Shown here: one piece after another, positions 17,901-34,399 of the stretch | How positions within the stretch are numbered: the stretch's first letter is position 1 | Layout of the letters: every line of letters begins with the position of its first letter | Translations under genes and position numbers: made by a program | DNA from: an uncultured Clostridia bacterium | GTDB lineage: Bacteria > Bacillota > Clostridia > Oscillospirales > Ruminococcaceae | NCBI GenBank assembly: GCA_947649285.1 | Contig: CANSRB010000001.1 | Location: 1-60,766, forward strand | Direction: 5' to 3' | DNA: 60,766 nucleotides | Notes under the pieces: generated by a model | What the model was told of the DNA's origin: nothing | Databases searched by the model: none | The model's input: the letters and a program-made list of their open reading frames with translations, nothing else

Positions 17901-19647
17901 TGAGATGAATTTCTACTATGACATCCGGGTACAGGCGGAGAACGAGGAATACAGTTCGCCTTCTTACCGGGTCTATGTGGAGCGGAGCATCCCGAATAAG
18001 AATACCGATGTGACCATTACCGTGAACAATGCGGCAGATGATACCAACCTCTGGACGGGTCAGTCTACCGCGGGGGATAACGGTGAATTTACCCTCCGCG
18101 TCCCATATGATGTGCAGGAGGTCAAAGTATCGGCGATTGCAAAATATCCGGATGTGACGACAGTTGAAATCAACGGCCGGCCGGTAGCTGTGGACAGTTT
18201 CCGGCAGATTACGCTGGATATTGGGGAAAACCTGATTACCGTAGAGGTCATTCCGGAGTCCGGACGGACCGAACTGCGGCAGATCCTACTGTATATTATC
18301 CGTGAGAAGCCCAGCTCGGAAGCGCGGCTTTATCCGATTACCGGGTTGGAGGTCAGTGGGGCGGAGAGTATGGATCCGGTCAACCTGATCCCGGATATCA
18401 CGAACTATACGGTGGTCATCCCTCAAGGCACCCGGAACTTCACGATTAAGGCAATCCCGCTGGATCCCCACGCGAGTGTGGAGATGGAATATGACGGGAT
18501 CCAGCAGACGCTGGGCGTCGGCGGCGGCACATCGCAGCCGATTGTAACCACCAAGGGTGTTACCCGTGTCCGGATTACCGTCACCGCGCAGGACGGGCGA
18601 ACGAAAAAGACCTATACCGTGACGATCCGTGACTATAACTTCCTGAAAAAGAGCAGCGATGCGACCCTTTCAGACCTTTATGTCAATTATGGCGATTTGT
18701 CCCCCGATTTCCTGCCGAATGTAGAGGAATACGAGCTGTATATCAAGCCCAATGAGATGAAGCTGAGCCTTACGCCCACCCTTTCTGACAGCCGGGCGAG
18801 CATGGTTGTCAAGATGGACAGCAAGGTTTTGAGTGCGTATAACGGCGCTTATTCCAACTCGATCCTGGCGGATCAGACGGTGTTTACCATCGAAGTTACC
18901 GCCGAGGACGGCACCAAGAAAACCTATACCCTGAATGTGTATCGGAACGATGAGGAAAAGCAGGGGAACCTCAAGCCGATCAAGGCCGATATGATTGATT
19001 TTGATACTTCCAACCCGATTTATGTGGACATTACCCAGTATGCCCTGATCGACGCGGAGGTGTTCAAGAAGATGAAAGAGGAGTATCCGGATAAGACCAT
19101 TGTCTTCCAGGGGAATGACTATGCGCTGGAGATTAAAGGCAGTGAGATTGACGGTTTGACTCCGCATGTGGAAACCTATGACCTGCGTTTCTGCTTCGCA
19201 ACGCCGGATGAAGCGCTGATTCAGGACGCGATGATGCGGGGAGGGGAGGATCCGGATATTGACCCGGTTTACCTCTACTTCAACGACCATGGCGCGCTGC
19301 CCGGCCGGATGAAGCTGACCATCAACCTGGGCAGGGAATACCGGAATCAGCAGCTGTTCTGGAACTATTATAATGATGAACGGGATCGGATCGACTATTA
19401 CGGTTACGTCAATTCCAATGCAAAAGGGACATTCAGCGTCCCGATCACCCACTTCAGCACCTATTTCGTGACGGACAGCAAGCTGATCAGCGCGGAGAAT
19501 AAAGCGGGTGTGAACTACGATGGCACGATGGCCAACGGTTTAGGAGAAAGCAGCGATAATAGGAACCCCGGCGATATCAATGGCGGCAGCAGCAGCGGCG
19601 GCAAAAAGCCCAACCCGCAGACTGGCGTGTATGCTGAAATACGCTGA
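14992..19647 (+). CDS. Large secreted surface protein with cadherin-like beta-sandwich repeats and terminal NPQTG
   Basis: Signal peptide; repeated VTAxDGxxKxYTxxxxR strands; ends KKPNPQTGVYAEIR; class B sortase next door. Confidence 0.85.
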   Translation: MRMRNGRLVSERVTAFLMAAMMLFLSAGEGIPAKAAPNDNNGYYVEAVDINNQPQQTLYLLEGETLDIRRTRVPDGYEYSTQKPFEVSLTEGGTADQSVIEAKTTQVGSNIEASITAAKGKHPGQTALTSYNLTPVFRAYFKRSSTATVDFDTVNTDGNLVHISKNITANVLGTDGTASGLEILNEGILEFEVLDVGSPAAPGAPENPDEGVIQSLGKVTAQGDLKTAGFDGVQPSWDNVSRNSITVSMSNMSGTNQSLTLQITLPGDKLTKGAKFRITFRKETVRGITMAIVDRQNAVNMISTEQIQRTPTDYILLKPTDADLAHIVNNFELRHKDFSYNYKEGFNIEWEWVPDDPNNANSLEILNKNPNQEKWAVTVTQKMENVSGRLRATVKYEKGKGTANAEPVYTALPVEIPIIILGTGKSPSRTPVEQKVGTGNWTSVTEFPPQMDVYDGTHPNWPIKPTLPYTFRGKLNFGEGTSKAYTAKITVGDNDSGEVEVFVNNSTTPYVFGSEIRNPNTDVDDEQLVTFEVKAKELGSVRLMVTFYDRNGNEIVNPPQQPININITADSSPSPDWSLKALDLYGNFVSEKDSGLDKESYQDLQTRFEKAYPGGQVEYGFQPGPEKPTEFTIPLPWVIDKVNLGLLYNKTPLAETTSQRAVTVRWTDDKGTAQERRYELSPDGSKTVMDEWIPINYEQTKDITVSTLADNGDGGTYKFSITREPQGSNGFLELLEATRAGGETALPWLDGVEQPADQPLDLELVRNITYHIPYAERDKKFTLKATAADDWGRKPQFEVVDQDIDAPLNTLRRLLNSQTRVIYPRYRWNRDTGEINNINRVDVYSTSADGKTTIIYHVTVIVDDPDPDNTLADLRVVNPVDDSVYEFIEGAYAADRISRSYSMKLPYSTEKIQLDALPNSGKAIQVEVMKYSTDTDQPLWKNAKSKVVRDNATYLEFADDVSPSDPVTDDEMNFYYDIRVQAENEEYSSPSYRVYVERSIPNKNTDVTITVNNAADDTNLWTGQSTAGDNGEFTLRVPYDVQEVKVSAIAKYPDVTTVEINGRPVAVDSFRQITLDIGENLITVEVIPESGRTELRQILLYIIREKPSSEARLYPITGLEVSGAESMDPVNLIPDITNYTVVIPQGTRNFTIKAIPLDPHASVEMEYDGIQQTLGVGGGTSQPIVTTKGVTRVRITVTAQDGRTKKTYTVTIRDYNFLKKSSDATLSDLYVNYGDLSPDFLPNVEEYELYIKPNEMKLSLTPTLSDSRASMVVKMDSKVLSAYNGAYSNSILADQTVFTIEVTAEDGTKKTYTLNVYRNDEEKQGNLKPIKADMIDFDTSNPIYVDITQYALIDAEVFKKMKEEYPDKTIVFQGNDYALEIKGSEIDGLTPHVETYDLRFCFATPDEALIQDAMMRGGEDPDIDPVYLYFNDHGALPGRMKLTINLGREYRNQQLFWNYYNDERDRIDYYGYVNSNAKGTFSVPITHFSTYFVTDSKLISAENKAGVNYDGTMANGLGESSDNRNPGDINGGSSSGGKKPNPQTGVYAEIR

Positions 19648-19771
19648 GGCATTCGACACCCATTTTTGCAGTTATTTACTTTACTCCGGGGCGGATTTGC
19701 TCCGGAGTAAAAATTTATTGGAAAATCCTCCTGAACAAGGGGGATGAAGGAACGATCAGAGAGGTGAGCGG

Positions 19772-20722
19772 ATGAAGACGAATACGAAACCTTCGGCAAA
19801 ACCACCGGCTAAAACTCCGGCAAAAGCCCCAATAAAGCCTTCTGTAAAAGCGCCGGTCAAAGCCCCGGCTAAGGCTTCGGGCAAGGCCCCGGCAACTGTC
19901 CCCGAAAAGGCCGAGAAAAAGGGAGGGAAGGTATTCCTCCTCACCTTTTTGATTGTGCTGGCCGTGCTGGGCGCAGTATGGGCGGGATTTTTCTTTTGGA
20001 AACAGATGCCGGAGGAACAGGCCCCAACCCTGGAAATTGATGAAAACAATCCCAATGTACTCGGCCAGATCCCTCCTGCGGGAAATGAGGCGGATATTCA
20101 GAACAGCCTGGATTACGCCATTGGCCAGACCCCGGATGCGGTAGGATGGATCCAGATCCCGGATACCGATATCAACGGGCTGATTATGCAGGCGGATGAC
20201 AACCGGTATTATGAGCGCCGGAATGAAGATGGGAATTATGATGTATACGGCTGTTATTTCGCGGATTATGAGTGCGCGCTGGGGGCCAGGGAGGATTTTT
20301 CTCAGAATACCATCGTCTATGGGCATGGCAATTCCACGGATGATCCAAATGGGAAGCGTTTTTCCCAATTATTCCGGTTCCTGGATCAGGACTTTGCACA
20401 AAAGCATCCCTATGTGACTATTACCACCCAGGAGGGAAGCTATACCTTCCAGATTTTTTCGATCTTCTATACCTCGACGGACTTCAATTACATTGAAGTA
20501 AATATGAATGACCGGAAGAAGCTGTCGATTGCCAATAAGGCGCTGGAGCTTTCGATTTATGACTATGGCGTAACCGTATCGGAGGAGGATCGGCTGCTGA
20601 CGCTTTCCACCTGCGCCCTGGCGGAGGGAAAGGAGAACGAGCGGTTTGTGGTGATGGGGAAGCTTTGCCCCGAGAATTTCAGCAAAAGGGAAAGCATCCT
20701 GCTGACGAAAAGAGAGCCGTAA
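19772..20722 (+). CDS. srtB: Class B sortase
   Basis: N-terminal TM, VGWIQIPDT, NTIVYGH, LLTLSTC, ERFVV (His-Cys-Arg). Confidence 0.92.
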   Translation: MKTNTKPSAKPPAKTPAKAPIKPSVKAPVKAPAKASGKAPATVPEKAEKKGGKVFLLTFLIVLAVLGAVWAGFFFWKQMPEEQAPTLEIDENNPNVLGQIPPAGNEADIQNSLDYAIGQTPDAVGWIQIPDTDINGLIMQADDNRYYERRNEDGNYDVYGCYFADYECALGAREDFSQNTIVYGHGNSTDDPNGKRFSQLFRFLDQDFAQKHPYVTITTQEGSYTFQIFSIFYTSTDFNYIEVNMNDRKKLSIANKALELSIYDYGVTVSEEDRLLTLSTCALAEGKENERFVVMGKLCPENFSKRESILLTKREP

Positions 20723-20788: not shown

Positions 20789-21609
20789 TTGAAAATGAAT
20801 GTGCAGGAAGTCCGGAAATATTATGATGACAATAGCCTGAAGGAGTGGGAGCGCCTGGAGAAGAATCCTTTGGAATTTATTTTTACCACTTATAAGATGG
20901 ATCAATATATTCAGCCGGGTGACAGTATCCTGGACATTGGCGGCGGTCCGGGACGGTATTCCATCCATTATGCCCAGAAGGGCTGCGGGGTGACGCTGGT
21001 TGATTTATCCGAAAAAATATTGAGCTTGCCGGGAAGAAGGCGGAGGAATCCCAGGTCCGCTTTCCGATGTTTGCTGCGGACTGCCGTGCCCTTGACGGAT
21101 TAGGGCTGGGCCAATACGACCATGTATTTTTAATGGGCCCTTTATATCACCTGCAAAGGAAGGAGGACCGGATCCAGGCCGTTGAGTCGGCGATGGAACA
21201 CTTGAAGCCCGGCGGATTCCTTTATTGTTCCTTTATCCTGGATTTTGCAGGGCTTATTTATGATTTGAAAAACGGTCCCGGATATCTGCCGGAGGATTTG
21301 GCGAACCAATCCACGAGAGGGCTGCTCCGTTCCATTATTGAGGGGACGGAGTATGTTGGCCCCGCATTCACATCGGCTTATTTTATCAATCAGCGTCAGA
21401 TCGAACCCTTTATGCAGCAGTTCCCTTTAGAAAAATGCTGTTTGTTCGGGCAGGAAGGTATTTTGGCGCTTTATGCTAATCAGCTCCAGTCATTTCCCCA
21501 GGAGGAGTATGACCTTTGGGTGGAAACGGCGAAGGAATTTCTGGAGCTTCCTGAATTTCTGGCGTTTTCCGAACACGCGATGCATATTGGCAGAAAAAGA
21601 AGCAGCTAG
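20789..21609 (+). pseudogene. Class I SAM-dependent methyltransferase split by a frameshift at the A6 run 21012-21017
   Basis: ILDIGGGPGRYS in frame 1 and YDHVFLMGPLYHL in frame 2; adding one A joins them. Confidence 0.85.
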
Positions 21610-22270: not shown

Positions 22271-23428
22271 ATGAAATTACTTCAAACGAAGGATATCCGT
22301 GCCAGAAACCGGATGCAGATTATGCAGCAACTCATACAGTGCAAAGAGGTTTCGCGTGCGGAGATCGCGGAAATTACCGGGCTGAATAAGGCGACCGTTT
22401 CAACCATTGTGAAAGAACTGCTGGATAACGGGTTTATCGTGGAAACTGCCATGGGTGTTTCAACGGGAGGCCGGAAGCCAATCATGCTGACCCAGCAGGC
22501 AGATGCCGGCTATTGTATTGCGGTGGATTTGAATGTCACCCATATCCAAGTCACGGTGACGGATTTGGCAAATCGGTTTTGTGCAGAATCCTCGGTTCCA
22601 GTCAAAGGGGAGAGCTTCAAGCAGAATTTCCAGCGGCTGTGCGGGGAGATTCATCAGCTGGTTGAGAAACGACCGCCCAGTCGTTATGGACTGATCGGGA
22701 TCAGCGTGGCTGTGCGCGGCGTGGTGGACCTGGACGGGGTTATCCGCTTTATCCCCAAGCTGAAATGGCGGGACACGGATTTGAAAACGCTGCTGCATCA
22801 GGAATTCCAGGTGCCGGTTTATGTGGATAATGACGGAGATCTGGCCGCTATGGCAGAGCGCCGGGAAAATCCTGGCTGGGATGAAATGCTGGTGCTGAGC
22901 GTGGACGATGTCCTTTCGGCTGGTTTAGTTTCGCATGGGAAGCTTGTCCGGGGGTATTTGGGGTTTGCCAATGCGGTGGGGCATCATATCTTAAACTGTA
23001 AGGAAACCCGGCCGTGCAACTGCGGGAAATATGGCTGCTGGGAGCAGTACTGCTCCTGCCTGACCCTGCTGGAGGCGGCGAACCGGGGGGCAGAGCATCC
23101 TTCGGGGAGCATGGAGGAATTAGCGGAGCGGATCCGTATCGGGGACAGTCAGGCCCAGCAGGCGTTGAGGGAATTTCTGGATTATCTGTCCATTGGGATT
23201 ACCAACCTGATTTTTGTGCTGAACAGTGAAGTGATTATCTTGAATTCCCGGCTGTTTTCCGCTTTGCCGGAGCTGGTGGAGGAGGTTCAAAGGCGGATTA
23301 TCCTGCCGATTACCGGCTTAGGGACTCAGACGATCTATTTGTCCAAGCTGGGGCAGCGGGCTGCGCTGACCGGGGCGGCTGCCGTGGCGATTGAGGGGTT
23401 TTATTCCAACTGCATGGAACAGCTGTAG
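22271..23428 (+). CDS. ROK-family transcriptional repressor
   Basis: HTH SRAEIAEITGLNKATVS, GGRKP, CNCGKYGCWE Zn motif. Confidence 0.93.
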   Translation: MKLLQTKDIRARNRMQIMQQLIQCKEVSRAEIAEITGLNKATVSTIVKELLDNGFIVETAMGVSTGGRKPIMLTQQADAGYCIAVDLNVTHIQVTVTDLANRFCAESSVPVKGESFKQNFQRLCGEIHQLVEKRPPSRYGLIGISVAVRGVVDLDGVIRFIPKLKWRDTDLKTLLHQEFQVPVYVDNDGDLAAMAERRENPGWDEMLVLSVDDVLSAGLVSHGKLVRGYLGFANAVGHHILNCKETRPCNCGKYGCWEQYCSCLTLLEAANRGAEHPSGSMEELAERIRIGDSQAQQALREFLDYLSIGITNLIFVLNSEVIILNSRLFSALPELVEEVQRRIILPITGLGTQTIYLSKLGQRAALTGAAAVAIEGFYSNCMEQL

Positions 23429-23474
23429 TGAAACTAAAAAGAGGAAAGCAGATGCTTTCCTCTTTTTGTGTTAC

Positions 23475-24062
23475 TCAGCGGTTTATAATCCGCAAAGCGA
23501 AATCCAGATAACTGCGCACCGCAAGGGCCGTATCCTCCGTTGGTCGGAGGTCGGACATCGGGCCGGAAACATGGCTCACGCCATAGGCGGGCTGTTCCGG
23601 GCCCTGGATGTTACAGGGCACAGACAGGTTTACCATTCCCATATGCTGGGCAAAGGTATTCATCACCTGCATACAAAGCTCCACGCCACCGACCAGACTG
23701 CCGCTGGTGGCAAAACAGCCGAAGAATTTTCCGGCCATCCTGGCTTCGACCCAAATATCACAGAAGGAATCCATAAAGGCCTTCATCTGAGCGGAAACGC
23801 AGCCATAATAGGTGGGGGAACCGAGGAAAAGGGCGTCGACATCCGTGAAATCCTTCCCGCTTCCCGCAATGGGAAGGGAAAGGATTTCTTCCCGGTATTC
23901 CCGGGAGGAGTCAAACCGGAGGGAGGTTTCGGCAAAGGTATCATCCTTCACGCGGTAGAGGGTGACATCCTGCCCTTGGTCCTTCAGATAATCCGCGAAG
24001 CGTTTGGCAATGAGATAGGTATTTCCACAGACGCTGTGGAAGACAACGGCAATTTTTGCCAT
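23475..24062 (-). CDS. WrbA-like NAD(P)H:quinone oxidoreductase/flavodoxin
   Basis: HSVCGNT, GSPTYYG, QMKAFMD, GGVE, YGVS. Confidence 0.85.
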   Translation of the reverse strand: MAKIAVVFHSVCGNTYLIAKRFADYLKDQGQDVTLYRVKDDTFAETSLRFDSSREYREEILSLPIAGSGKDFTDVDALFLGSPTYYGCVSAQMKAFMDSFCDIWVEARMAGKFFGCFATSGSLVGGVELCMQVMNTFAQHMGMVNLSVPCNIQGPEQPAYGVSHVSGPMSDLRPTEDTALAVRSYLDFALRIINR

Positions 24063-24135
24063 GGGAAGCCCCGTCCTTTCAGCAGAAAACCGGCGGGGAA
24101 CTTCCCCGCCGATCTCTTTGTTTTTTCAAATCGTA

Positions 24136-25086
24136 TTAGTCATAAATCAGTTTATGGCGCAGGTAGAAGAAATGGTCGCTGTGGGAATGGATGGAAAGCA
24201 TCTTGGTATGCGGATGATCCTGGGAGCCGAACTCCTTCCCGAATTTGCCGATGGACAGCGCCTGCCCGCCGATATACAGGCAGGAGTAATTCAGGAAGAG
24301 TTCATCCATCATTTTCTGGGCTACCAGGAAATGCATATAGGAGGGGGTTTCAATCAGCATCCGGTCGATCCCGAATTTTTTCAGGATATAGAGCGCGGTC
24401 TTGGAGTCCGGCACTTTGTCTCCGGTGGCAAGGACGAGCACCTTATTGGCATTGGCCTTCATTTCATCAATCAGGGCCGGTGTGACCTCTTCCACCGAAC
24501 TTGCGGTAACCGCAAAATAATCGTTTTTGATTTTTTCCCGGACAATTTCCAGACCTGCCTTGGAGGTGCTGATCATCACCGGGACTTCCGGTGTATGGAA
24601 CAGTAAATGGTCGAACGGGATATCTGTGGCGTCCAGCGAAGTGATAATGTTCCACGGCACCGGGGGCTTTCCGGCAGAAATCCGCATATCCTCCAGATCC
24701 TGATCGAATACATGGCAGGTATAATCCGCTTCAGCATTCATGGTGCCTGCCCCCAGCATGACCGCGTCGGACAGGGAACGGAGCATATTCAGGATCCACC
24801 AGTCCGCGTCCGCGCCAGCCGGGTCACAGCGGTTCAGCTTAGCGATCAGCGGGCCTTGGGGAGCGTCGGCGAAAGCAATCTTGCCGTCGATCGACGTCAC
24901 CAGGGAAGTATAGGTGCAGGGACGGTCTTCATGCAGCTCCATGAATTGAAGATCCCCGTAAATCTGTTGGATTTTGTCGCAGGTCATGGTACCTGCCTGG
25001 CAGTTTTTCAGATCCTCGCTGGCATAAATCCGGCGGACCTTGGTTTTTTCAATATCAAACGGCATTTTGAACAGAGAAGTAGCCAT
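24136..25086 (-). CDS. RibD C-terminal/DHFR-fold reductase
   Basis: SLVTSIDGKIA, LRSLSDAVMLGAGT, MLIET, DELFL; no deaminase domain. Confidence 0.8.
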   Translation of the reverse strand: MATSLFKMPFDIEKTKVRRIYASEDLKNCQAGTMTCDKIQQIYGDLQFMELHEDRPCTYTSLVTSIDGKIAFADAPQGPLIAKLNRCDPAGADADWWILNMLRSLSDAVMLGAGTMNAEADYTCHVFDQDLEDMRISAGKPPVPWNIITSLDATDIPFDHLLFHTPEVPVMISTSKAGLEIVREKIKNDYFAVTASSVEEVTPALIDEMKANANKVLVLATGDKVPDSKTALYILKKFGIDRMLIETPSYMHFLVAQKMMDELFLNYSCLYIGGQALSIGKFGKEFGSQDHPHTKMLSIHSHSDHFFYLRHKLIYD

Positions 25087-25098
25087 GATCGTTCCCCC

Positions 25099-25839
25099 TT
25101 AAATATGCAGGGCGGTGGTACCGCCGCAAACGCCCAGCACCTCGCCGGTGACAAAGCTTGCGTCGTCGCTGGCCAGGTAAACGATCGCGTTGGTCATATC
25201 CTCGATTTTGCCGATCCGGGCCATTGGGTAGATAGCCGCCATTTCGCGCTCGACCGCTTCCGGATCCGGCGCTTCGGTAAAGCGGGCTTCGATCATCGGG
25301 GTGCGGACCAGGCCCGGCATGATGCAGTTGGCGCGGATGGCTGGGGCCTGCTCCAGCGCGATGCATTTGGTCAGCATAATCACAGCGGCTTTGGAGGGAC
25401 AGTAGCCGATCCGTTCCGGGATGGGGGCCAGGCCTAGGTCGGAAGCGATATTGACAATCGCGGCGCCCGGCTGTTTTTTCAGCTCCGGAACAGCGGCCTT
25501 GCACATATGGAATACCCCGTTGACGTTGATCTGGAATTCACGGGAGAAGCTTTCCGGAGAGGTGCTTTCCAGCGAACCGATGAAGGTAACGCCGGCGCAG
25601 CAGATCAGCTTGTCTACTTTGCCGAAAGCTTCCACTGCTTTGGCGACCACCTTTTCCGCAGCGGCATACTCGGTCAGGTTAGCTTGGACATAGATGGCGT
25701 TTGGATCTTGAATGTTCATCTTTTCTTCAATGCCGCAGCCGACCACCTTTGCGCCCTCTGCCAGGAATCTTTTTGCAACGCCTTCGCCAATGCCGGAGCT
25801 TGCGCCGGTTACGATAACGACTTGGTTTTCAAATTTCAT
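25099..25839 (-). CDS. Short-chain dehydrogenase/reductase
   Basis: TGASSGIG, YCPSK, NCIMPG. Confidence 0.93.
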   Translation of the reverse strand: MKFENQVVIVTGASSGIGEGVAKRFLAEGAKVVGCGIEEKMNIQDPNAIYVQANLTEYAAAEKVVAKAVEAFGKVDKLICCAGVTFIGSLESTSPESFSREFQINVNGVFHMCKAAVPELKKQPGAAIVNIASDLGLAPIPERIGYCPSKAAVIMLTKCIALEQAPAIRANCIMPGLVRTPMIEARFTEAPDPEAVEREMAAIYPMARIGKIEDMTNAIVYLASDDASFVTGEVLGVCGGTTALHI

Positions 25840-25852
25840 TTGAATTTCTCCT

Positions 25853-26034
25853 TATAGTAAATAAAGTTGAAAAGCATACCGGATGCTTTTCACCGGCGGT
25901 TTCCGCCGGGGCCGCCGAAAGCGGCCAGTTTATTTGGCTTCATTGTTCAGTAAGTGTGCACTTTGTGCACCGGCAGGCCAAGGGCCGCCGGGTGAAAACT
26001 GGCATTTTGCCAGTTTTCAACTTTACTGACAATA
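25853..26034 (+). repeat. Structured TA-ended repeat element, copy E1 (182 bp)
   Basis: Imperfect terminal IRs TATAGTAAATAAAGTTGAAAA / TTTTCAACTTTACTGACAATA; six hairpins; core GGCTTCATTG shared with 51122 and 57649 copies. Confidence 0.75.
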
Positions 26035-26102
26035 TCATGATATAGATTCTGATCCCATTGGATGCGTGATCGGGCATTCCCGGGCAACCCGGGAGGGGTG
26101 AT

Positions 26103-26672
26103 TTATAGGCCGTTTGCCTCCCGAACTTTCTGCGCCAGAGCACGGATTTCTTCCGCAATGTCGGGCCGGGTTTCCAGGGAATCCCGGTCGCTGTTCGGGA
26201 GAGTAACCTCCCCGGTGAAATGGATGCTCATATCCTTGAGCAGGTTTTTGAGGACCAGCTCGCCCCCCAGGAACTGGTTTTCGAAAGAAGGCGCGCCGCC
26301 GACCATCAGGATCGAGCCGGTTTTCCGGAAAGCTTCCGGCTTATCCTTACGCAGGCAGCTTGCCCAGTAGGGCTGGAGCCGGTCGATAATGGTTTTCAGC
26401 TTGCCGCTGATAGAGTGGAAATACATCGGGGAGGCCAGAACGATATTATCGGCTTCTTCCAGCTTTTCATACACGGAAACCATACCGTCTTTGATACTGC
26501 ACCCGTTTTTATGCCAGCAGAAACGGCAGTCCTTACAAGGGGCGATTTCCAGCTCGGTGCGGTAGGCGTCGATGATCTCCACCTCGCCGCCCAAGGTTTC
26601 CAGGAAGAGGTCGAGCATTGCCTTGGTATGGCCGTTGGCTCTTGCAGAGCCAAACAGGACAAGAGTTTTCAT
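26103..26672 (-). CDS. Iron-sulfur flavoprotein/NADPH-dependent FMN reductase family
   Basis: GSARANGHT, CKDCRFCW...C, ASPMYF. Confidence 0.85.
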   Translation of the reverse strand: MKTLVLFGSARANGHTKAMLDLFLETLGGEVEIIDAYRTELEIAPCKDCRFCWHKNGCSIKDGMVSVYEKLEEADNIVLASPMYFHSISGKLKTIIDRLQPYWASCLRKDKPEAFRKTGSILMVGGAPSFENQFLGGELVLKNLLKDMSIHFTGEVTLPNSDRDSLETRPDIAEEIRALAQKVREANGL

Positions 26673-26685
26673 AAAAGCTTCCTTT

Positions 26686-28227
26686 CTATTCTTTAAAAGC
26701 GGCTAATTGGGCTTCGAGCTCCGCCTTTTCCTGAGCTCCTTCTTCGGCCAGGGACGCTTCATAGGATTTCCGGTTGAATTTCAGGAAATGCAGCGCCAGG
26801 AAGACGACAGCACAGATCGCGTAAACCGCAATAAATCCCAGATCCGGCGCATAGGTATCCGTGAAGAGGACGCCGGGAGAATGCATCATACCGATCCCCG
26901 TAAGCGCCAGGCCGGCCAGGTTGGCAATCGAAGCCTTGAGCCATGCGTTGTCGATGATAAAGACAAAGATACAGCCGACGACCAATCCAATAAATGCGGA
27001 ACCATCTGTGAAGGCGGAGAATCCGGCCAAGCTTCCTTCGGCGACATTATCCGAGATAAAGTCGATTACCAGAGGCAGGGAGGCCATAACAACCGCCGGG
27101 AAGTATTTCCGCTTCACCACGTTGAACGCCTGGGTATAGCTGGAAATCCCGACAAAGACCAGGATGGGGAGAACCGTAGCTTCCGGAATAAAGGCGTTGA
27201 TAATCGCGGACAGCCCGGTCAGGGAAACGACGGCATAGAGCGCGGTGATCCCCAAATGGTAGCCGGTGCCGGCTTTCATTTCTTTCCAGCCCGGATAGCC
27301 CCAATACAGGCCGACTGCCAGCGGGCTTCCAAACAGGGCGCCGACCATACTTGCACAGCCGGAGAGTACCAGCGGCGTGGTGGTGGTAAAGAAGGTATCC
27401 CCGCATTCGCGCGCCTGCTCGACTGCCTGGATGCCGGTGATGACTTCGTTGAGGGAAAAGACGATGATAATCGGCAGGAACATGATGACCTGTTTCAGCA
27501 CATCGCCCGAGAAATAGCCAATAGTGAATTTGGGCAGATGGAAGCTCAGGTTTGCCAGGGAGTCTGTTACAGCGCTGAAGCTCATCTCACCGGTGACCCA
27601 GGCAATTGCCGCACCAACTACAATGGCAATCAAAGCAGCCGGAAGCTTGACATTGATCTTGCCCAGGTAAATTACAAAAAGTACGATCAGGGAAAGCCAG
27701 CCGATCAGCGGCATTTTCAGGGTTCCGTCCATGGACTGGAGGATCAGGAACGCCATCGCCCCGCCGGCCAGGGAGCCGAACAGCGCGCCGGCCGGGACAA
27801 TCTTCAGAATCAGCGGTACGACAAAGGCACCGGCGACGAAAACAGCCCCGCCGATGAAATGCGCGACGACACCGACCTTGAAAGCGAGCATCGCGTCGCC
27901 AGTGGACAGAAAGACCGGCAGCATGATGCTGTACAGCCAGATGAACATCCGGCCTGCCTGCAAGCCAGCCGGAACTGCCGTCAGGCCGGCATCCCCGCGC
28001 TGCTGGGCAATGCGGCGGTAGTAATACCAAAGCCCGCCGTTGAGCACAATGACGCTGATCATAACCCCCGGCATCATGACGCCGAATACGGTGGAGCTTT
28101 CCATGCCAAAGGTACCGACCAGGATGGCGATCGCCACAATAACCTTGGAAAAGCCGTCGAAGAATACGCCGATGGAGGCGTCGAGATCCGCTTTTTTGAA
28201 CAGCGGGATTTTAACATTAGAAGCCAT
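26686..28227 (-). CDS. NCS2-like (xanthine/uracil/vitamin C) permease, paralogue 2
   Basis: ~13 hydrophobic segments; DLDASIGVFFDGFSK; GYPGWK. Confidence 0.8.
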   Translation of the reverse strand: MASNVKIPLFKKADLDASIGVFFDGFSKVIVAIAILVGTFGMESSTVFGVMMPGVMISVIVLNGGLWYYYRRIAQQRGDAGLTAVPAGLQAGRMFIWLYSIMLPVFLSTGDAMLAFKVGVVAHFIGGAVFVAGAFVVPLILKIVPAGALFGSLAGGAMAFLILQSMDGTLKMPLIGWLSLIVLFVIYLGKINVKLPAALIAIVVGAAIAWVTGEMSFSAVTDSLANLSFHLPKFTIGYFSGDVLKQVIMFLPIIIVFSLNEVITGIQAVEQARECGDTFFTTTTPLVLSGCASMVGALFGSPLAVGLYWGYPGWKEMKAGTGYHLGITALYAVVSLTGLSAIINAFIPEATVLPILVFVGISSYTQAFNVVKRKYFPAVVMASLPLVIDFISDNVAEGSLAGFSAFTDGSAFIGLVVGCIFVFIIDNAWLKASIANLAGLALTGIGMMHSPGVLFTDTYAPDLGFIAVYAICAVVFLALHFLKFNRKSYEASLAEEGAQEKAELEAQLAAFKE

Positions 28228-28327
28228 AAAAGTTCTCCTTTAATTTTTGTCAGCAGGCTTGCAGAGGATGCAGAAAAGAGAGAAACGGCAGAGCCTTACA
28301 AGCGCGTGGATGTCCGGCTGAGGGGAG

Positions 28328-29290
28328 TTATTTGGTGCAGCTGAAGGACTGTGCCAGTACCTCCAGGTTGAATTCGCCTGCGGTAAAGACCCGGCCGGTC
28401 CGTTGATTGATGATGACCACCTTAGCGGGGGAATAGGTCTGCATCGGGACCTGATAGAAGTCACAGCCGTACTGCTGGTAGATTTCCTTGAACATCGTGC
28501 CGTAAACCGGGGATTTGTCACAGGTAATCTTGTCAATAACCGCCTCGATCTCGGAATCCTCACAGTCCACGGTATAGGTGGACTGGCCGCCATACATCAG
28601 GACGTCATTGACCCGGCCCATTGCGATCAGGTCGTCTTTGGCAACCGGCGGAATAACGCAGAAGCCATGAGCTTCGACAATGCTGTCCAGGTTGAAGCCT
28701 TCCTCGCGCAGGCGATGCAGGGTTTGCTCCAGGATACGGGCCGCCACTTCGACCGAGCAGACGGTGCTGCCGCTGGCTGCCAGGATGATGTAGAGGTTCT
28801 GCGGGTCGATGCCGACCGCGTCAATCAGATCCTGAACCTCGTCTTCGGACATGATGCTGCCCTTTTCCACCGTCAGGACGGCTTTCGTATACCGGTCCTG
28901 ATAATCCGAATAGACCTCCAGCCAATCGCCGGGTTTTCTGGCCAGCGTGCGGCCGGGGCCTGCCAGCACCGGCGCGTATTTCCCGGGGCGGAGCTCCCAG
29001 CCCGAGATGTTGCAGGCCGCCTGCTGAAGGACGGTGTAGTCCGAAAAAACGTTTACACAGTTGTAATAAACATTCCCGATCCGCTCCGGGAAGATCCCAT
29101 AGGAAATCTGATTCAGGCCGCCGAACAGGATCTCGGTGACCATTCTGGCGGATTCCCAGCCGCCGTCCGCTTCCACGCCGCAGTCGATGATATACGCGCC
29201 GCGGATCCGGTGGACTTTTGCCTTGTAGGCTTCCGGGTCGGCGACAATCTGCTCTGCGATCCGAACCGATTTTTCGTTTACGCTAATCAT
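28328..29290 (-). CDS. mch: Methenyltetrahydromethanopterin cyclohydrolase (Mch) homologue
   Basis: MISVNE, IDCGVEAxGG, GPGR, ARILE, AMGRVND..YGG, DFY, PAKVVI..TG...AG match Mch; ATG after AAGGAGG. Confidence 0.88.
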   Translation of the reverse strand: MISVNEKSVRIAEQIVADPEAYKAKVHRIRGAYIIDCGVEADGGWESARMVTEILFGGLNQISYGIFPERIGNVYYNCVNVFSDYTVLQQAACNISGWELRPGKYAPVLAGPGRTLARKPGDWLEVYSDYQDRYTKAVLTVEKGSIMSEDEVQDLIDAVGIDPQNLYIILAASGSTVCSVEVAARILEQTLHRLREEGFNLDSIVEAHGFCVIPPVAKDDLIAMGRVNDVLMYGGQSTYTVDCEDSEIEAVIDKITCDKSPVYGTMFKEIYQQYGCDFYQVPMQTYSPAKVVIINQRTGRVFTAGEFNLEVLAQSFSCTK

Positions 29291-29427
29291 GGCAAATACC
29301 TCCTTAAATGATAGCTGTACTATAGATGAATGCCGGCCAATGCCAAACAGACATTCCAAATAAGAAATAAGTTTGCGGTTTTAGTAAAAACCGCACGAAA
29401 TGAGGAAAAATTTCCCCCATATTTTAC

Positions 29428-29448
29428 ATAGTTCGAGAGATAAACTAT
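29428..29448. promoter_or_regulatory. Putative ROK operator upstream of mch
   Basis: ATAGTT-CGAGAGATA-AACTAT palindrome (GTT-N9-AAC), similar to 31085-31105. Confidence 0.55.
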
Positions 29449-29497
29449 CTTTTCGAAGAAATTCTCTCTCCGCGGGGAGAGAGGCTTCCTTCCGGTT

Positions 29498-31063
29498 TCA
29501 GTTGATATATTCGGGGATATTTTTGGCTTCCTCCGGGCTTTTTTTCCGGATGAATTTTTTCTGAAAAATAATCGCGCCAGTAGCGAGATAGAGAATCCCG
29601 AGAATAGTTCCGTTTTTAGGGAATAGGGCGATTGCGTCGTTATGGATCATGCCAATGAAGGAACAGCCAGCCAATACCAGGCAGAATACCGCCGCGTTGG
29701 TATATTTTTTGTCAATCAGGCAGGCAAGCATTCCGGCGATCAGCAGGCTGGAGAGGAATGCACCGTTTGCCAGCAGATTGATCCCGGTAATCGGGAGCGA
29801 GTTTTCCGCAAAGACCTCCAGCGGGATCTGTGCCGCGCTTTGCCCGGCGGACTCCAGCGCCGAATTGATCAGGGTTTGGATATATTGGAACAGGATGGGG
29901 ATCAGCGAAATCAGGATTACGGAAAAATACCGTTTGTCCGTGGTTTGGAAGTTCTCCGTACTGACCACCAGGCCGACAAAGATCAGCAGAACCAGGACGA
30001 CTTCATAAGGTACGACAGCCATAATGACGCCGGTCAGCCCGGTTAGGCAAACCGCCAAGTAGGCCAATCCGACAGCCAGGGAGTAGCCGGCGTGGGCATC
30101 GATGGCCTTCCAGCCGGGATGGCCAAAATAGACTGTGGTTGGGAATGGATTTCCCAGCAGGGAACCGACAGTAGTGCAAACGCCGTCCATAATCATGGAT
30201 TGACGTTCCGGGTAGGTATCCCCGGCAATTTTTGCGCTTTCGACCCCTTGCAGGGTGGTCAGGAAGTTATTGATCTGAAGCGGGATAATGATCGGCAGGA
30301 AGGGGATGACATCGCCGAAGCCGCCGAAGATATCGCCGGCAAAGAAACCGGGTACTGAAAATCCAAGATTGGAGAAAGAGGAGGTGAAGTTTTCCCAGGT
30401 CATATAGCCGGTTGCCCAGGCGATGATACTGCCGATCACAATGGCAATAATGCCGGTCGGGATTTTGCGGAAGCGGCGGTCTACCTTCGCGATATAATCC
30501 ATAATAACGATAAACAGCGGAAGCACCGCAATTTCCGGCTTGTCGAACACGGTGGCCATCCCGATGATGGAGAGCCAGACCAGCGCACTGGAAGCCATGT
30601 TGCCCAGCAGAGCGCTTTGCGGAACGTGCTTCACGATCCAGCGGCCTGCAAATGCACCGAGGATTTCGACCAGCCCTCCGATAAAACAGGCAGTCAGCCC
30701 TACCCGGAAAGCGAGCATCGCGTCGCCCGTCTGCCAGTAAACCGGGCCCATAATCAGGAAAAGCCATCCGGTCAGCTGGGAAGCGCCGATCCCAAAGGGT
30801 TGTGCCGTGACATTATGGCGTTTTTCCTTTTCCGCCAGCCGTTTAGCTTCATAAAAATACCAAAGGTTCCCCAGGAAGGTGGCCACGCCGATTGCCGGGA
30901 CGATTTTGCCGATAACCAAGCTGGCGGGCATCCCGAATACGTACAGCATGATGCCGATGGCAGAGATGATTTTGGAAAAACCGTCGAAAAAGACCCCGAA
31001 CGTTGCGTCCAGATCCCCTTTTCCCCACCACTTGTAGTTGAATTTTGCGGCCGTTGTTTCCAC
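29498..31063 (-). CDS. NCS2-like permease, paralogue 1
   Basis: DLDATFGVFFDGFSK; GNPFPTTVYFGHPGWK; polytopic membrane protein; GTG start. Confidence 0.85.
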   Translation of the reverse strand: METTAAKFNYKWWGKGDLDATFGVFFDGFSKIISAIGIMLYVFGMPASLVIGKIVPAIGVATFLGNLWYFYEAKRLAEKEKRHNVTAQPFGIGASQLTGWLFLIMGPVYWQTGDAMLAFRVGLTACFIGGLVEILGAFAGRWIVKHVPQSALLGNMASSALVWLSIIGMATVFDKPEIAVLPLFIVIMDYIAKVDRRFRKIPTGIIAIVIGSIIAWATGYMTWENFTSSFSNLGFSVPGFFAGDIFGGFGDVIPFLPIIIPLQINNFLTTLQGVESAKIAGDTYPERQSMIMDGVCTTVGSLLGNPFPTTVYFGHPGWKAIDAHAGYSLAVGLAYLAVCLTGLTGVIMAVVPYEVVLVLLIFVGLVVSTENFQTTDKRYFSVILISLIPILFQYIQTLINSALESAGQSAAQIPLEVFAENSLPITGINLLANGAFLSSLLIAGMLACLIDKKYTNAAVFCLVLAGCSFIGMIHNDAIALFPKNGTILGILYLATGAIIFQKKFIRKKSPEEAKNIPEYIN

Positions 31064-31084
31064 TGCCGAGGCTCCCCCTTTTTA

Positions 31085-31105
31085 TAAGTTTAATAGATAA
31101 ACAAA
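31085..31105. promoter_or_regulatory. Putative ROK operator upstream of permease 1
   Basis: TAAGTT-TAATAGATA-AACAAA, just downstream of a minus-strand TGnTATAAG -10 (31115-31123). Confidence 0.55.
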
Positions 31106-31300
31106 GAATTAATACTTATACCACGGAAAAATCATATTTTGTTCACTTTTTATTTGTTAAAATTTTATCACTATTTCAAACCAAAGTCAAGGTGTTTTGG
31201 CGAAAATTTGAACCATAGAGGGAAAAATTTTTTCCGGCGGCTGCAGGACAAAAAGAAAAGGGCCCTTCTTTTCACAGAAAGGCCCTTTTGTAGTGGAAAA

Positions 31301-31495
31301 CTATTCCTCTGTTGCGGTAAATCCGATGTCGTCCAGTTCTGCGATCGCCGTTTTGACGCAGTTTTCACAGCCATTGATCGAAACCGTTTTGTTTTCCAGC
31401 GAGACTTCAAAGTCCAGCCCGGCCGCGTTCAGAACACGGGTAATCCGCTCCACACATTTTCCGCAGTGCATTTCTTCCACTTTTAAGGTAGTCAT
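31301..31495 (-). CDS. copZ: Copper chaperone (HMA)
   Basis: MHCGKC motif, 64 aa. Confidence 0.85.
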   Translation of the reverse strand: MTTLKVEEMHCGKCVERITRVLNAAGLDFEVSLENKTVSINGCENCVKTAIAELDDIGFTATEE

Positions 31496-31510
31496 AGAAA
31501 GTCCTCCTTC

Positions 31511-31816
31511 TCATTTCATCAGTTTTTGCAGGGTGGAAAGCAGCTCGTCCACTGCTTCCTCCCGGCCTGCTTTTATATCCTCAGCCACACAGCTTTTGAT
31601 GTGGCTGCTCAGCAGCGTCTTGCAAAAGGCGTTTAAAGCCGACTGAATCGCACTGACCTGAGTCAGGATGTCGATGCAGTAAACGTCCCGTTCCACCATC
31701 CCGCGCACCCCCCGGACCTGCCCTTCGATCCGACTCAGGCGGTTGAGCATCGCTTGGATTTCGGCGGTTTCCCGGTGTTTGGTGCGCTCGGCACAGCAGT
31801 TTTGATTATTGTCCAT
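31511..31816 (-). CDS. csoR: Copper-sensing repressor CsoR
   Basis: RLSRIEGQVRG, YCIDIL, HIKSC. Confidence 0.92.
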   Translation of the reverse strand: MDNNQNCCAERTKHRETAEIQAMLNRLSRIEGQVRGVRGMVERDVYCIDILTQVSAIQSALNAFCKTLLSSHIKSCVAEDIKAGREEAVDELLSTLQKLMK

Positions 31817-31855
31817 CTAGGCTCCTCCTAACTTGGATAAGGTGGATTCCGGGGG

Positions 31856-34111
31856 TCAGAGCTTCTTCGCCCGCAGGCGGAGCGCGTTCAGCACTACGCA
31901 AACCGAGCTTAAAGACATCGCCAGACCAGCAAACATGGGATCCAGCAGCATCCCATTGAAGGGGAAGAGTACGCCGGCCGCAATCGGAATGCCAATGGTA
32001 TTATAACAAAACGCCCAGAATAAATTTTGCTTGATATTACGAATTGTATATTTACTTAATCGGAATGCCCGCCCGATATCCTTCAGATCGGATTTCATCA
32101 AGACCAAATCCCCGGATTCAATGGCAATATCACTGCCGCTGCCGATTGACGCACCAATATCCGCCTGTACCAGCGCCGGAGCGTCGTTGATCCCGTCGCC
32201 AACCATCATGACCACGTGCCCTTCGCCTTGGAACCGTTGGACAATAGCGGCTTTATCCTCCGGAAGCACCTCCGAAATAACCTCGTCTGCGGCTACCTGT
32301 TCCCCGATATAGCCTGCCGCCGCCGAATTATCGCCAGTCAGCAGGACGACACGGACTCCCATTTTCTGCAAGTCGGCGATCGCTTCCCGGCTGGTTTCCT
32401 TGATGACGTCTGCTACGCTGATAATCCCCTGGAGTATTCCGTCAAGCGCCACATACATCGGGGTTTGACCCTGGCGGGACAGCCGGCTGGCGTGCTCGGA
32501 GAGCTTTTCCAGCTTTATCCCGGATTCCTCCATCAGCCGGCGGTTCCCGACCAGGATTGGATGGGGGACGGATTCCAGGATCAGCTCCGCCCGGATGCCT
32601 TTGCCGGATAAATTTTCAAAGCCGCTTACTGGGTAAGAGGGCGCTTGCTCCTGCTCGCCCCGGAGGGTGATCGCCTTGGCCAGCGGATGGTCGGAAAGGG
32701 TTTCCACGGAGGCGGCCATCCCGAGGAGCTGATGGGCATCTCCGTCGGTGATGATCTCGGCAACCTGGGGTTTCCCCTCCGTGACGGTTCCGGTTTTATC
32801 CAACAGCACGACATCGGCCTTGTGGATCTGTTCCAGGGCTTCGCCGCTGCGGATCAGGATCCCGTTGGACGCGCCCAGCCCCGTCCCGACCATGATTGCT
32901 GTCGGGGTAGCCAGACCCAGCGCACAGGGACAGGCGATCACCAGCACCGCGGTAAAGACACGCAGAATAAAGGAGGCATCCTGCCCGGCGAGCGCCCAGA
33001 TCAGGGCTGCCGCCGCCGCGATGGCAATGACCACCGGTACAAAAACGCCGGCAACCCGGTCCGCAATTTTTGAAATGGGCGCCTTTTTGCCCTGAGCGTC
33101 CTCTACGATCCGGATAATCTTGGCTAGGGTCGTATCCGCACCGACCCGCTCGATCTGTACGGTCAGCGCGCCATTGTAACTGACGCTCCCGCCGATCACG
33201 CTGCTGCCCGGTGTTTTTTCCACCGGAAGGCTTTCTCCGGTCAGCATGGATTCGTCAACTCCGCCGCTTCCTTCCAGGACGGTCCCGTCCAGTGGGATTC
33301 GGGCACCCGGTCGGACCAGCACTCGGTCCCCGACCTTCAGACTGGAGGTCGGAACCTCGAGCAGACTTCCGTTATCCAGCAAAAGGGCGGTGTCCGGTGC
33401 TAAAGCCATTAGCTTTTCGATGGCGCCCTTGGTTTTTTTCCGGCTGTTTCCCTCAAGATATTTTCCCACCATGATAAAGGTGATAACTACCGCCGCCGAT
33501 TCATAGTACAAATGATGGGCCAGCATGGGATTGTCAGGAATCTGATAGGTCAGGATCAGGCTGTATAAAAACGAACAGCCGCTCCCGATGGCCACCAGCG
33601 AATCCATGTTGGGGTTCCGATGGAACAGCGCTTTCAGGCCGCCGGTAAAAAAGCGCCGCCCGAAATAGAGGATCGGGATACTCAGCAGAAGCTGGGTCAG
33701 GGCGAAGTTGGTGGGATAGAGGTTCATATCCAGAAAGGCAGGGACCGGCAGTTTCCAGGCGAACATCTGCCCCATGGAGATATAGAGCAGGGCAACGGTT
33801 AAAATCACCGCCCCGATGAGGTTGTTCCGCGCGGAATGATCCTCCTTGGCTGGTTTTTCCGGATGGAGAGGCGCAGCGGCTTCCGCGGACGGCTCTGGGA
33901 TATATGGCTTGATCCCATAGCCGGTTTTTTCGACTTTGGCGATGATTTGCTCGGGTGTGACCTGGTCTTCCTGATAAACGATGGTCATTTTATTGGTAGT
34001 CAGGTTGACGTCACTGCGTTCCACGCCCTCCATTCGGCGGGTGACCCGTTCCACGGCGCTGGAGCAGGCCGCGCAGGTCATCCCTTCAATGCAGTATACT
34101 TCTTCTTTCAT
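31856..34111 (-). CDS. copA: Copper-translocating P1B ATPase
   Basis: GMTCAAC, CPC, DKTGT, GDGIND, YN..M..SS. Confidence 0.96.
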   Translation of the reverse strand: MKEEVYCIEGMTCAACSSAVERVTRRMEGVERSDVNLTTNKMTIVYQEDQVTPEQIIAKVEKTGYGIKPYIPEPSAEAAAPLHPEKPAKEDHSARNNLIGAVILTVALLYISMGQMFAWKLPVPAFLDMNLYPTNFALTQLLLSIPILYFGRRFFTGGLKALFHRNPNMDSLVAIGSGCSFLYSLILTYQIPDNPMLAHHLYYESAAVVITFIMVGKYLEGNSRKKTKGAIEKLMALAPDTALLLDNGSLLEVPTSSLKVGDRVLVRPGARIPLDGTVLEGSGGVDESMLTGESLPVEKTPGSSVIGGSVSYNGALTVQIERVGADTTLAKIIRIVEDAQGKKAPISKIADRVAGVFVPVVIAIAAAAALIWALAGQDASFILRVFTAVLVIACPCALGLATPTAIMVGTGLGASNGILIRSGEALEQIHKADVVLLDKTGTVTEGKPQVAEIITDGDAHQLLGMAASVETLSDHPLAKAITLRGEQEQAPSYPVSGFENLSGKGIRAELILESVPHPILVGNRRLMEESGIKLEKLSEHASRLSRQGQTPMYVALDGILQGIISVADVIKETSREAIADLQKMGVRVVLLTGDNSAAAGYIGEQVAADEVISEVLPEDKAAIVQRFQGEGHVVMMVGDGINDAPALVQADIGASIGSGSDIAIESGDLVLMKSDLKDIGRAFRLSKYTIRNIKQNLFWAFCYNTIGIPIAAGVLFPFNGMLLDPMFAGLAMSLSSVCVVLNALRLRAKKL

Positions 34112-34246
34112 CCGGATTCCTCCATTCTCGTTGCAGCGGATCTCAGCATGATTGTGCTCCGATCCTCTCTATTTTCCCCTGTAACCCTTTTTTCTCTTCA
34201 AGCTGGACATGGATTTTTATGCCGTTTTCTTCCAGAAACAGATTAT

Positions 34247-34301
34247 AAACCCCCTAGGGGTATCTTGCTCTTAGTTTATACCCGGATGGGGTATTTGTCA
34301 A
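34247..34301 (-). promoter_or_regulatory. copA promoter with two CsoR-type operators
   Basis: TTGACA-17-TAAACT on the minus strand; AAACCCCCTAGGGGTAT (34247-63) and ATACCCGGATGGGGTAT (34278-94) C/G-tract pseudo-palindromes. Confidence 0.8.
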
Positions 34302-34399
34302 GAGGAAAATTTCCGTTAAGCGGAAGGAGCGCTTCCGTCCTGTTTGAAAAGGGTGTATAATAGACCTAAAATCAAAAGGAGAAAGGGCGGAGGATTTTT

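Follow-up and report, generated by a model that had tools for sequence, protein, structure and literature searches.

The gene cluster

This report concerns a 60,766-nucleotide stretch of DNA (the window, contig C1) from the genome of an uncultured member of the Clostridia, designated G000, which measures 2.02 Mb and is 98.25% complete. Between positions 22271 and 31105 of the window lies a cluster of eight genes in which a homologue of the methanopterin enzyme Mch is embedded among genes for two permeases, several putative redox enzymes and a ROK-family regulator. An earlier reading of the letters alone (the sequence-only reading) had drawn attention to this arrangement, and we confirm that every gene is present and intact, where and in the orientation in which it had been placed. 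The results described below indicate that the cluster is real and conserved, that it is likely to be co-regulated, and that it does not serve methanopterin metabolism. The genes on the minus strand are ordered permease 1 (perm1), mch, permease 2 (perm2), the Isf-like gene, a gene for a short-chain dehydrogenase/reductase (SDR), the RibD_C gene and the WrbA-like gene, and the ROK gene on the plus strand is convergent with them. The features of the cluster are as follows.

22271..23428, plus strand: ROK-family repressor, helix-turn-helix (HTH) plus ROK (PF00480, E 9e-44; HTH matches)
23475..24062, minus strand: WrbA-like flavodoxin-fold oxidoreductase, optional member (PF03358)
24136..25086, minus strand: stand-alone RibD_C/DHFR-fold reductase, core member (PF01872)
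25099..25839, minus strand: classical SDR, core member (PF13561/PF00106)
25852..26033, no strand: variable spacer between the Isf-like and SDR genes, with inverted repeats
26103..26672, minus strand: Isf-like FMN_red protein, core member (PF03358 plus Cys motif)
26686..28227, minus strand: permease 2, a paralogue of permease 1, about 12 predicted transmembrane segments
28328..29290, minus strand: Mch-family cyclohydrolase, 320 amino acids, ATG start, accessory member (TIGR03120, PF02289)
29429..29447, no strand: palindromic operator-like site upstream of mch
29498..31063, minus strand: permease 1, about 10 or more predicted transmembrane segments
31086..31104, no strand: palindromic operator-like site upstream of perm1
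31162..31190, minus strand: sigma-70-type promoter match (10/12, extended -10; a consensus match only), upstream of the perm1 site

A ribosome-binding-site-like sequence precedes the start of all seven minus-strand genes, and the GC content of the cluster is that of its flanks. DNA of the cluster occurs in mouse-gut (two studies, one of which may include the source run), faecal and sediment metagenomes. The spacer at 25852-26033 is skipped or replaced in contigs from three other runs, and in other copies of the cluster it is occupied by a small TIGR03792-like gene that G000 lacks. Transcription of the cluster was considered and set aside as a conclusion, the contigs from RNA runs (X16/X17) reaching only shallow depth in 26 and 19 of the 30 bins, with intergenic DNA included.

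Conservation of the cluster

The unit comprising perm1, mch, perm2, the Isf-like, SDR and RibD_C genes and the ROK gene recurs in other genomes at 43-79% identity and with differing flanks, as the sequence-only reading had required of it. Copies that include mch are found in C. amylolyticum (L002), Massiliimalia massiliensis (L003), C. paraputrificum (L004, of which L021 appears to represent the same species), the metagenome contig L019 and the genome G009 (L032). Five further genomes (G258, G949, G1076, G947 and G956) hold the rest of the module without mch, and in none of the five did a genome-wide search detect PF02289. Because of these five genomes Mch is regarded as an accessory protein: the core consists of the two permeases, the Isf-like protein, the SDR, RibD_C and the ROK protein, often accompanied by the small TIGR03792-like gene, and Mch and the WrbA-like protein are add-ons, the latter being additionally present only in L001, L003 and L047. 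Mch is an orphan at the level of the whole genome (see below) and is dispensable to the module.

The distribution of these genes is patchy. Mch occurs in 3 of 41 relatives, G000 counted, and the RibD_C subfamily in 8 of 301 genomes of the host family, 2 of 251 of the order, 3 of 351 in the family of G276 and at least 4 of 238 scored genomes in the family of G043, the last tally being a lower bound as 13 Clostridiaceae genomes were unscored.

A conserved palindrome and the ROK repressor

A 19-bp palindrome of the form WWGTTT-N7-RAAYWW is found upstream of perm1 in nearly every copy of the cluster, the match in L019 being weaker, and also upstream of mch in L002, L003, L019 and L032. Three sites fit this pattern in the window, two of which are those at 31086-31104 and 29429-29447. 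When the genome was scanned with a matrix built from 13 sites of other genomes, the mch site ranked first and the perm1 site third in 2.0 Mb; three sites exceeded 13 bits, as compared with none to two in each of five local shuffles. The second-ranked site (G000:C132:4353, 17.8 bits) lies near an open reading frame (ORF) for a secreted-looking protein and may be due to chance. From its position and conservation, the palindrome is likely to be the ROK operator, which would tie mch to the ROK gene and bears out the association with this regulator that had been read from gene order. The genome-wide matrix scan gave no convincing additional site that might point to a wider ROK regulon in G000, and an Rfam gathering scan of seven loci for riboswitch control detected neither a folate nor an FMN riboswitch, its only matches being a glmS ribozyme and a tRNA, both outside the cluster.

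The ROK protein scores below the NagC and Mlc cut-offs. It keeps the N-D and the Zn-type/Cys motifs, and in 10 of 10 orthologues the G-T-G and G-E-x-G-H motifs, which we take to be the canonical hexose-binding motifs of ROK proteins, are replaced; three kinase-type ROK paralogues of G000 that lack the HTH retain both. Since the motifs of the sugar site are altered in all of these orthologues, the effector is probably something other than a plain hexose.

An Mch without methanopterin

The product of mch scores 253.2 bits with TIGR03120 (cut-off 228.8) and 304.8 bits with PF02289. Its structural model, with a predicted local distance difference test (pLDDT) score of 93.9, matches solved Mch structures of the PDB with TM values of 0.89-0.91 in Foldseek (0.91 to 1QLM), at 28-34% sequence identity to known Mch proteins (PDB 1QLM, 4GVQ and 4FIO). 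Arg185 and Glu188, the equivalents of R183 and E186 of A. fulgidus Mch, which we take to be the catalytic Arg/Glu pair of that enzyme, occur in every one of the 39 sequences aligned. Between the window and L001, a near-identical locus, mch shows 40 synonymous changes and one non-synonymous change, and by these sequence comparisons it is a real, maintained gene under purifying selection.

In fold and catalytic pair, then, the protein resembles an Mch (EC 3.5.4.27), but the pathway that should accompany this activity is missing. The observation that no other gene of tetrahydromethanopterin (H4MPT) metabolism lies in the window holds for the entire genome: searches in which methanogen controls were positive gave no match to Ftr, MptG or Mtd in G000, and nothing above cut-off for FwdA/FhcA. 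Among five cluster genomes (G000 and four others), Ftr, Mtd and above-cut-off FwdA are each found in 0 of 5. MptG had no match in any cluster-bearing genome searched, the single-contig G009 included, nor in any searched genome with related orphan Mch loci; it is present in 2 of 17 related genomes, solely an archaeon and a planctomycete.

The binding-cleft segment SQ[K/Y]AGW reads CNISGW in the window protein, at a position that is variable across the Mch family. The signature C[NQD]ISGW, with Ile at the Lys94/Tyr position, is common to a clade of 50 proteins at 47-100% identity plus one fragment, among them records from Halothermothrix, Caloramator and Cloacimonetes. In a midpoint-rooted FastTree tree of 174 sequences (fragments and long fusions excluded, most tips without known context), this clade comprises 58 sequences with a support of 1.0 and is nested in a branch of 94 sequences (0.976). 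The larger branch contains the orphan Mch copies of known context, except for two very divergent second paralogues, and the copies from the two MptG-positive genomes are placed outside it. By this placement the window Mch would belong to a large non-methanopterin branch of the family. Genes in the vicinity of members of the branch encode Bmp-type ABC importers, COG0402 deaminases, NodB-like deacetylases, sarcosine-oxidase-like pairs, Mer-like and AcsE-like proteins, xanthine dehydrogenase (XDH)-type enzymes and lipoyl sets in the order SDR-mch-E1-E2-E3; methyltransferases and Bmp/PnrA-type importers also occur near related Mch genes. An assignment of the deaminases to a subtype by motif or PDB match proved not to be possible.

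Orphan Mch paralogues recur in operons for thiamine diphosphate (ThDP)/lipoyl dehydrogenases, arranged SDR-mch-E1a-E1b-E2-E3 (L022:1909-10966, L025:2653-10969, L054:7787-13865, L053:10540-13344 and L029), which may hint at an acyl- or formyl-handling role. The metagenomic protein P0339 fuses lipoyl and E3-binding domains to Mch; as a recurrent design this fusion was discounted, being a singleton among 49 matches and possibly an artefact. A catabolic island of ~45 kb on G770:C65 (L053-L055) carries three Mch paralogues, two XDH-type enzymes, deaminases, sarcosine-oxidase-like pairs, an aldolase and two E1 sets.

The reductases, flavoproteins and permeases

RibD_C represents an uncharacterised subfamily with 176 matches. 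The closest folds are those of archaeal Rib7, a ribosylamino-pyrimidinone reductase, followed by Rv2671, for which the PDB entries include complexes with dihydro- and tetrahydropteridine rings; the score with TIGR01508 is 34 bits against a cut-off of 186. All 29 sequences of the subfamily alignment have Asp95, which in a profile alignment coincides with D33 of Rib7 and D67 of Rv2671, and the EGG motif is replaced by E-[TSG]-P. Canonical RibD, when mapped to the subfamily profile, gave no alignment at Asp95. In DHFR a conserved Asp reads the 2-amino-4-oxo-pyrimidine edge of the ligand, and by analogy Asp95 might do the same for the substrate of RibD_C. A modelling study, in its accessible text, describes a ligand-binding Asp common to DHFR and Rv2671 (PMC10530724). 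The subfamily is represented in Enterocloster and Lachnospiraceae records as well, and a search of plasmids for it gave no match.

Relatives of RibD_C are accompanied by UbiD/UbiX and a deaminase (L041), a cytosine-deaminase-like gene (L052), an XDH-type cluster divergent from the core (L031), or xylose isomerase and xylulokinase (L050). At two loci (L035:12238-L036:2767 and L037:7913-17927), two RibD_C genes occur with genes for a class I aldolase, a Zn-dependent alcohol dehydrogenase (ADH), an FGGY kinase, a permease of the same family, an Isf-like protein and a GntR regulator, and this operon is a candidate pathway by which the polyol side chain of a heterocycle could be cleaved. A variant linked to a phosphotransferase system (PTS) in G487 (L033:8437-19186, L034:203-4020) has two RibD_C genes, an SDR with 51% identity, a PHP protein and two GPI-type cupins; the deaminase of L033 scores above the cut-off for 8-oxoguanine deaminase.

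The SDR possesses the Asn-Ser-Tyr-Lys tetrad. Among proteins of solved structure it comes closest to aldose/glucose dehydrogenases, and its top NCBIfam matches include, below cut-off, a model for butanediol dehydrogenase. Pteridine-reductase SDRs (PTR1/FolM/PruA) have the cofactor motif TGxxxRIG, in place of which the window protein and all aligned orthologues have TGASSGIG/TGAASGMG, and no pteridine reductase was found among its top 60 PDB matches. The protein thus looks like an alcohol/ketone dehydrogenase, and the sequence-only reading, which had noted that some SDR enzymes reduce pterins, needs correction on this point. The Isf-like protein carries the motif CxxCxxCxxxxxC, and the WrbA-like protein scores 86 bits with NF002999, below the cut-off of 141.

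The two permeases are 35% identical to each other and had been described as NCS2 carriers, a designation that our searches do not sustain, as neither protein has a sequence match in Pfam, NCBIfam or the PDB. A profile of the permeases compared with two AzgA-type proteins gave E values of 0.22 and 4.2, and by language-model features the nearest Pfam-bearing cluster to permease 1 is PF00860, at 0.89 with 173 shared features; NCS2 identity is therefore treated as a lead only.

A proposed function for the cluster

The proposal that an imported heterocycle is reduced and ring-opened still provides the best reading of the cluster, with the identity of the substrate putative. In the version that we tentatively favour, without considering it an even bet, the module, once induced, would take up a pterin-type compound whose side chain is a polyol (for example neopterin, monapterin, biopterin or one of their dihydro forms) and convert it reductively, and Mch would open a C=N bond of the ring. 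A substrate of this type is suggested because the module has two enzymes of the kind that bind a 2-amino-4-oxo-pyrimidine, an SDR for alcohols or ketones and a modified sugar-type repressor, and because related loci add deaminating, hydroxylating, decarboxylating and polyol-cleaving enzymes. The ring deaminases, Mo enzymes and UbiD/UbiX proteins near the relatives of RibD_C and Mch are of the enzyme classes described in the accessible text of PMC12391406 for a Cupriavidus cluster, the sole genetically defined cluster for pterin catabolism that we found.

The steps might be envisaged as follows. The ROK protein would occupy the two palindromes and be freed by the substrate or a product; the two permeases would bring in the substrate and possibly export a product. 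RibD_C would use NAD(P)H to reduce the ring, whose 2-amino-4-oxo edge would be read via Asp95, and the SDR would interconvert C-OH and C=O groups of the side chain or of the opened ring. Mch, through Arg185 and Glu188, would add water across an amidine or imine C=N and thereby open the ring; it is an optional add-on that is predicted to hydrolyse the ring C=N beside the pterin N5 and not to process methanopterin. The Isf-like and WrbA-like proteins might shield reduced products that are prone to autoxidation, keeping them from oxygen or from quinonoid cycling. In G000 the module probably accomplishes a partial conversion and not full mineralisation, because the downstream deaminase and Mo-hydroxylase of the related loci are missing.

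Several observations weigh against a pterin substrate, or against parts of this scheme. Deaminase and XDH queries from the related loci had no tblastn match in G000 at E<=1e-8, and 13 of 14 of the neighbouring COG0402 deaminases lack the PCS motif and fall below curated cut-offs where scored. The neighbours at related loci are diverse (xylose isomerase/xylulokinase, PTS, adenine deaminase, lipoyl dehydrogenases), so that several compounds might be handled. The best structural match of RibD_C is archaeal Rib7 and not DHFR, and a guanosine-derived substrate would fit equally well. The N5-C-N10 amidinium is missing from unconjugated pterins, on which Mch could act only by a changed reaction. The permeases have no NCS2 sequence match, and the sites above 13 bits in shuffled genomes and the unrelated 17.8-bit site indicate that a single palindrome is no proof by itself.

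A broader claim, about which we are more doubtful, is that the cluster represents an undescribed reductive pathway of pterin scavenging in gut and other anaerobic Clostridia, with a new permease family as the pterin transporters, a new subfamily of the DHFR fold to reduce the ring and a large, repurposed branch of Mch to open it by hydrolysis, by which commensals might consume neopterin, monapterin and biopterin released by the host or by enterobacteria.

Alternative explanations

The alternative that fares best, although we consider it unlikely, is a substrate derived from ring-opened or 7-alkylated guanosine, in which Mch would open 7-methylguanosine at its imidazolium ring and so yield an N5-formyl-pyrimidinone, RibD_C would, like Rib7, reduce the 6-ribosylamino group, and the ribityl chain would be acted on by the SDR. 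Hydrolysis of an imidazolinium to an N-formyl product is the established chemistry of Mch, Rib7 provides the closest folds to RibD_C, and related Mch loci include Bmp/PnrA-type importers, NodB-like deacetylases, sarcosine-oxidase-like pairs and methyltransferases. The release of ribose needs no reduction of ribosyl to ribityl, however, the mch-less core of five genomes would miss the entry step, and the window cluster contains neither a deformylase nor a nucleoside hydrolase.

It is less probable still that a folate auxotroph salvages oxidised or formylated folates with RibD_C as a DHFR resembling Rv2671 and with Mch interconverting 5-formyl- and 5,10-methenyl-tetrahydrofolate (THF). Family searches of G000 detected neither FolP nor FolA (nor ThyA and RibH; ribH is found in 0 of 5 cluster genomes searched), the cluster RibD_C is its sole PF01872 gene, and a haloarchaeal Mch is assumed to use THF, according to the accessible text of PMC8305020. 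Because G000 has FolD, 5-formyl-THF cyclo-ligase (5-FCL) and ThyX, however, Mch fills no obvious folate gap; FolD is present in 5 of 5 cluster genomes and 5-FCL in 10 of 11, G000 among them, and Mch as a substitute for either was rejected on these counts. RibD_C as the DHFR of a thymidylate cycle was likewise set aside, the genomic need for it being weak, since G000 uses ThyX and ThyA occurs in only 2 of 11 cluster genomes, each of which also has FolA. With FolA in 3 of 11, the cluster persists where it would fill no gap, and control by a catabolic-type ROK protein, with no folate riboswitch found in the Rfam scan, also speaks against folate salvage. In G042 and G949 the family searches detected no thymidylate synthase of either kind (ThyX or ThyA).

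Breakdown of riboflavin or 8-ribityl-lumazine appears improbable. Mch would hydrolyse the pyrazine ring, the SDR would reduce a diacetyl-type fragment and RibD_C would oxidise the ribitylamine, and for this one may cite the RibD-family fold, the below-cut-off butanediol dehydrogenase match of the SDR, the ThDP/lipoyl E1-E2-E3 sets adjoining related Mch loci, and a similarity to the aldolase, ADH and kinase chemistry of the fin locus as outlined in the accessible text of PMC13492142. Asp95 and the recurring deaminases would suggest a ring with a 2-amino group, a feature not found in flavins and lumazines; the RibF-like kinase and the aldolase of fin are both missing from the window cluster, and the Rfam scan revealed no FMN riboswitch.

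Methanopterin from neighbours, which the sequence-only reading had entertained as a substrate, is now a weak candidate, and we regard the scavenging of this compound or its one-carbon (C1) derivatives released by methanogens as very improbable. A methanopterin C1 compound is the native ligand of Mch, and related loci were recovered in metagenomes or metagenome-assembled genomes of digesters, sediments and saline sites; the cluster, however, has no phosphodiesterase, Ftr or other processing gene, Mch is dispensable in the module, the ligand would seem large and phosphorylated for a secondary permease, and the DNA is found in mouse-gut metagenomes of two studies, where methanogens are usually scarce. 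That Mch is a canonical member of an H4MPT C1 pathway whose remaining genes were missed is effectively refuted, its passing of the TIGR03120 cut-off notwithstanding, by the missing Ftr, MptG, Mtd and FwdA in the cluster genomes searched.

Genes flanking the cluster

Upstream of the cluster (31320-36253) are csoR, a short copZ-like ORF, copA and a GH127-family gene, flanks that are not common to other copies of the cluster. On the other side, a class I methyltransferase at 20789-21609 is present as two ORFs (104 and 180 amino acids) as compared with a single ORF of 316 amino acids in L001, reflecting either a frameshift or an assembly error. Further away (14983-20722) lies a gene for a secreted-looking protein of 1554 amino acids that ends in a sorting-like motif, followed by a sortase gene (PF04203).

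Significance and comparison with known systems

Taken as a whole, the earlier interpretation is partly supported. Neither of the two conditions by which it was to be refuted (a full H4MPT pathway in the genome with a standard Mch, or a cluster not conserved as a unit elsewhere) came true, and the conserved palindrome that is likely to be the ROK operator, the mch-less core in five genomes and the non-methanopterin branch of Mch are new to it. Mch serves as a marker of methanopterin C1 metabolism, and a clade that scores above the curated cut-off without the pathway will be misread in metagenomes. Cultured species carry the locus (C. amylolyticum, Massiliimalia massiliensis and C. paraputrificum) and provide a compact test system; a repressor with a defined palindrome is suited to a ligand screen, and the natural versions with and without mch isolate the Mch step. 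Should the substrate be a pterin, the cluster would bear on anaerobic pterin breakdown and on the transport of pterins across bacterial membranes. Bacteria excrete pterins by a route across the membrane that is stated to be unknown in the accessible text of PMC13259868. Among open-licence papers and bioRxiv preprints (subscription papers not being covered) we found no description of the cluster or of the Mch clade, in line with the sequence-only reading, which knew of no described pathway of such composition.

The ROK protein shares the HTH-plus-ROK architecture and the Zn-type motif of regulators of the XylR/NagC/Mlc type and differs from them in lacking G-T-G and G-E-x-G-H; its GTTT-N7-AAAC-type palindrome resembles what we take to be XylR sites. 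RibD_C has the fold and the ring-reading Asp of Rib7 (PDB 5XUX) and of the DHFR analogue Rv2671 (PDB 4XRB), and is set apart from both by an identity of 17-21%, some 60 additional residues, the replacement of EGG by E-[TSG]-P and a host without ribH. With canonical Mch the window protein has in common the fold, 28-34% identity, the equivalents of Arg183/Glu186 and the MGRxND segment, whereas its host lacks H4MPT synthesis and partner enzymes; the protein also belongs to a separate clade, and the uptake operon that encodes it is probably under ROK control and can do without it. Complete or partial sets of H4MPT genes do occur in some Firmicutes, according to the accessible text of PMC5020050.

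The riboflavin-induced fin locus of Clostridium scindens/Faecalicatena fissicatena, as presented in the accessible text of PMC13492142, likewise belongs to anaerobic gut Clostridia and combines two permeases with a heterocycle-polyol substrate; unlike the window cluster it has a RibF-like kinase, a class I aldolase and an ADH, and the terms 'RibD' and 'cyclohydrolase' have no occurrence in its main text. Cluster I of Cupriavidus sp. LA-1, for which the accessible text of PMC12391406 describes an oxidative degradation of pterin and lumazine via xanthine in aerobic soil bacteria, shows no Mch or DHFR-fold reductase in that text. Conversely, no pterin deaminase, Mo-dehydrogenase, isomerase or UbiD was found at 22271-31105, the isomerase and UbiD having been looked for in the cluster only. 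The deaminase, Mo-dehydrogenase and UbiX/UbiD classes recur beside RibD_C and Mch relatives elsewhere, a comparison by enzyme class and not by orthology. A further comparison is with the haloarchaeal orphan Mch HVO_2573, which in the accessible text of PMC8305020 is assumed to act on tetrahydrofolate, with a shift of cofactor being proposed. A housekeeping C1 role is assumed there, whereas the window gene resides in a putatively inducible transport cluster of a genome that already has FolD and 5-FCL; both represent an Mch without methanopterin.

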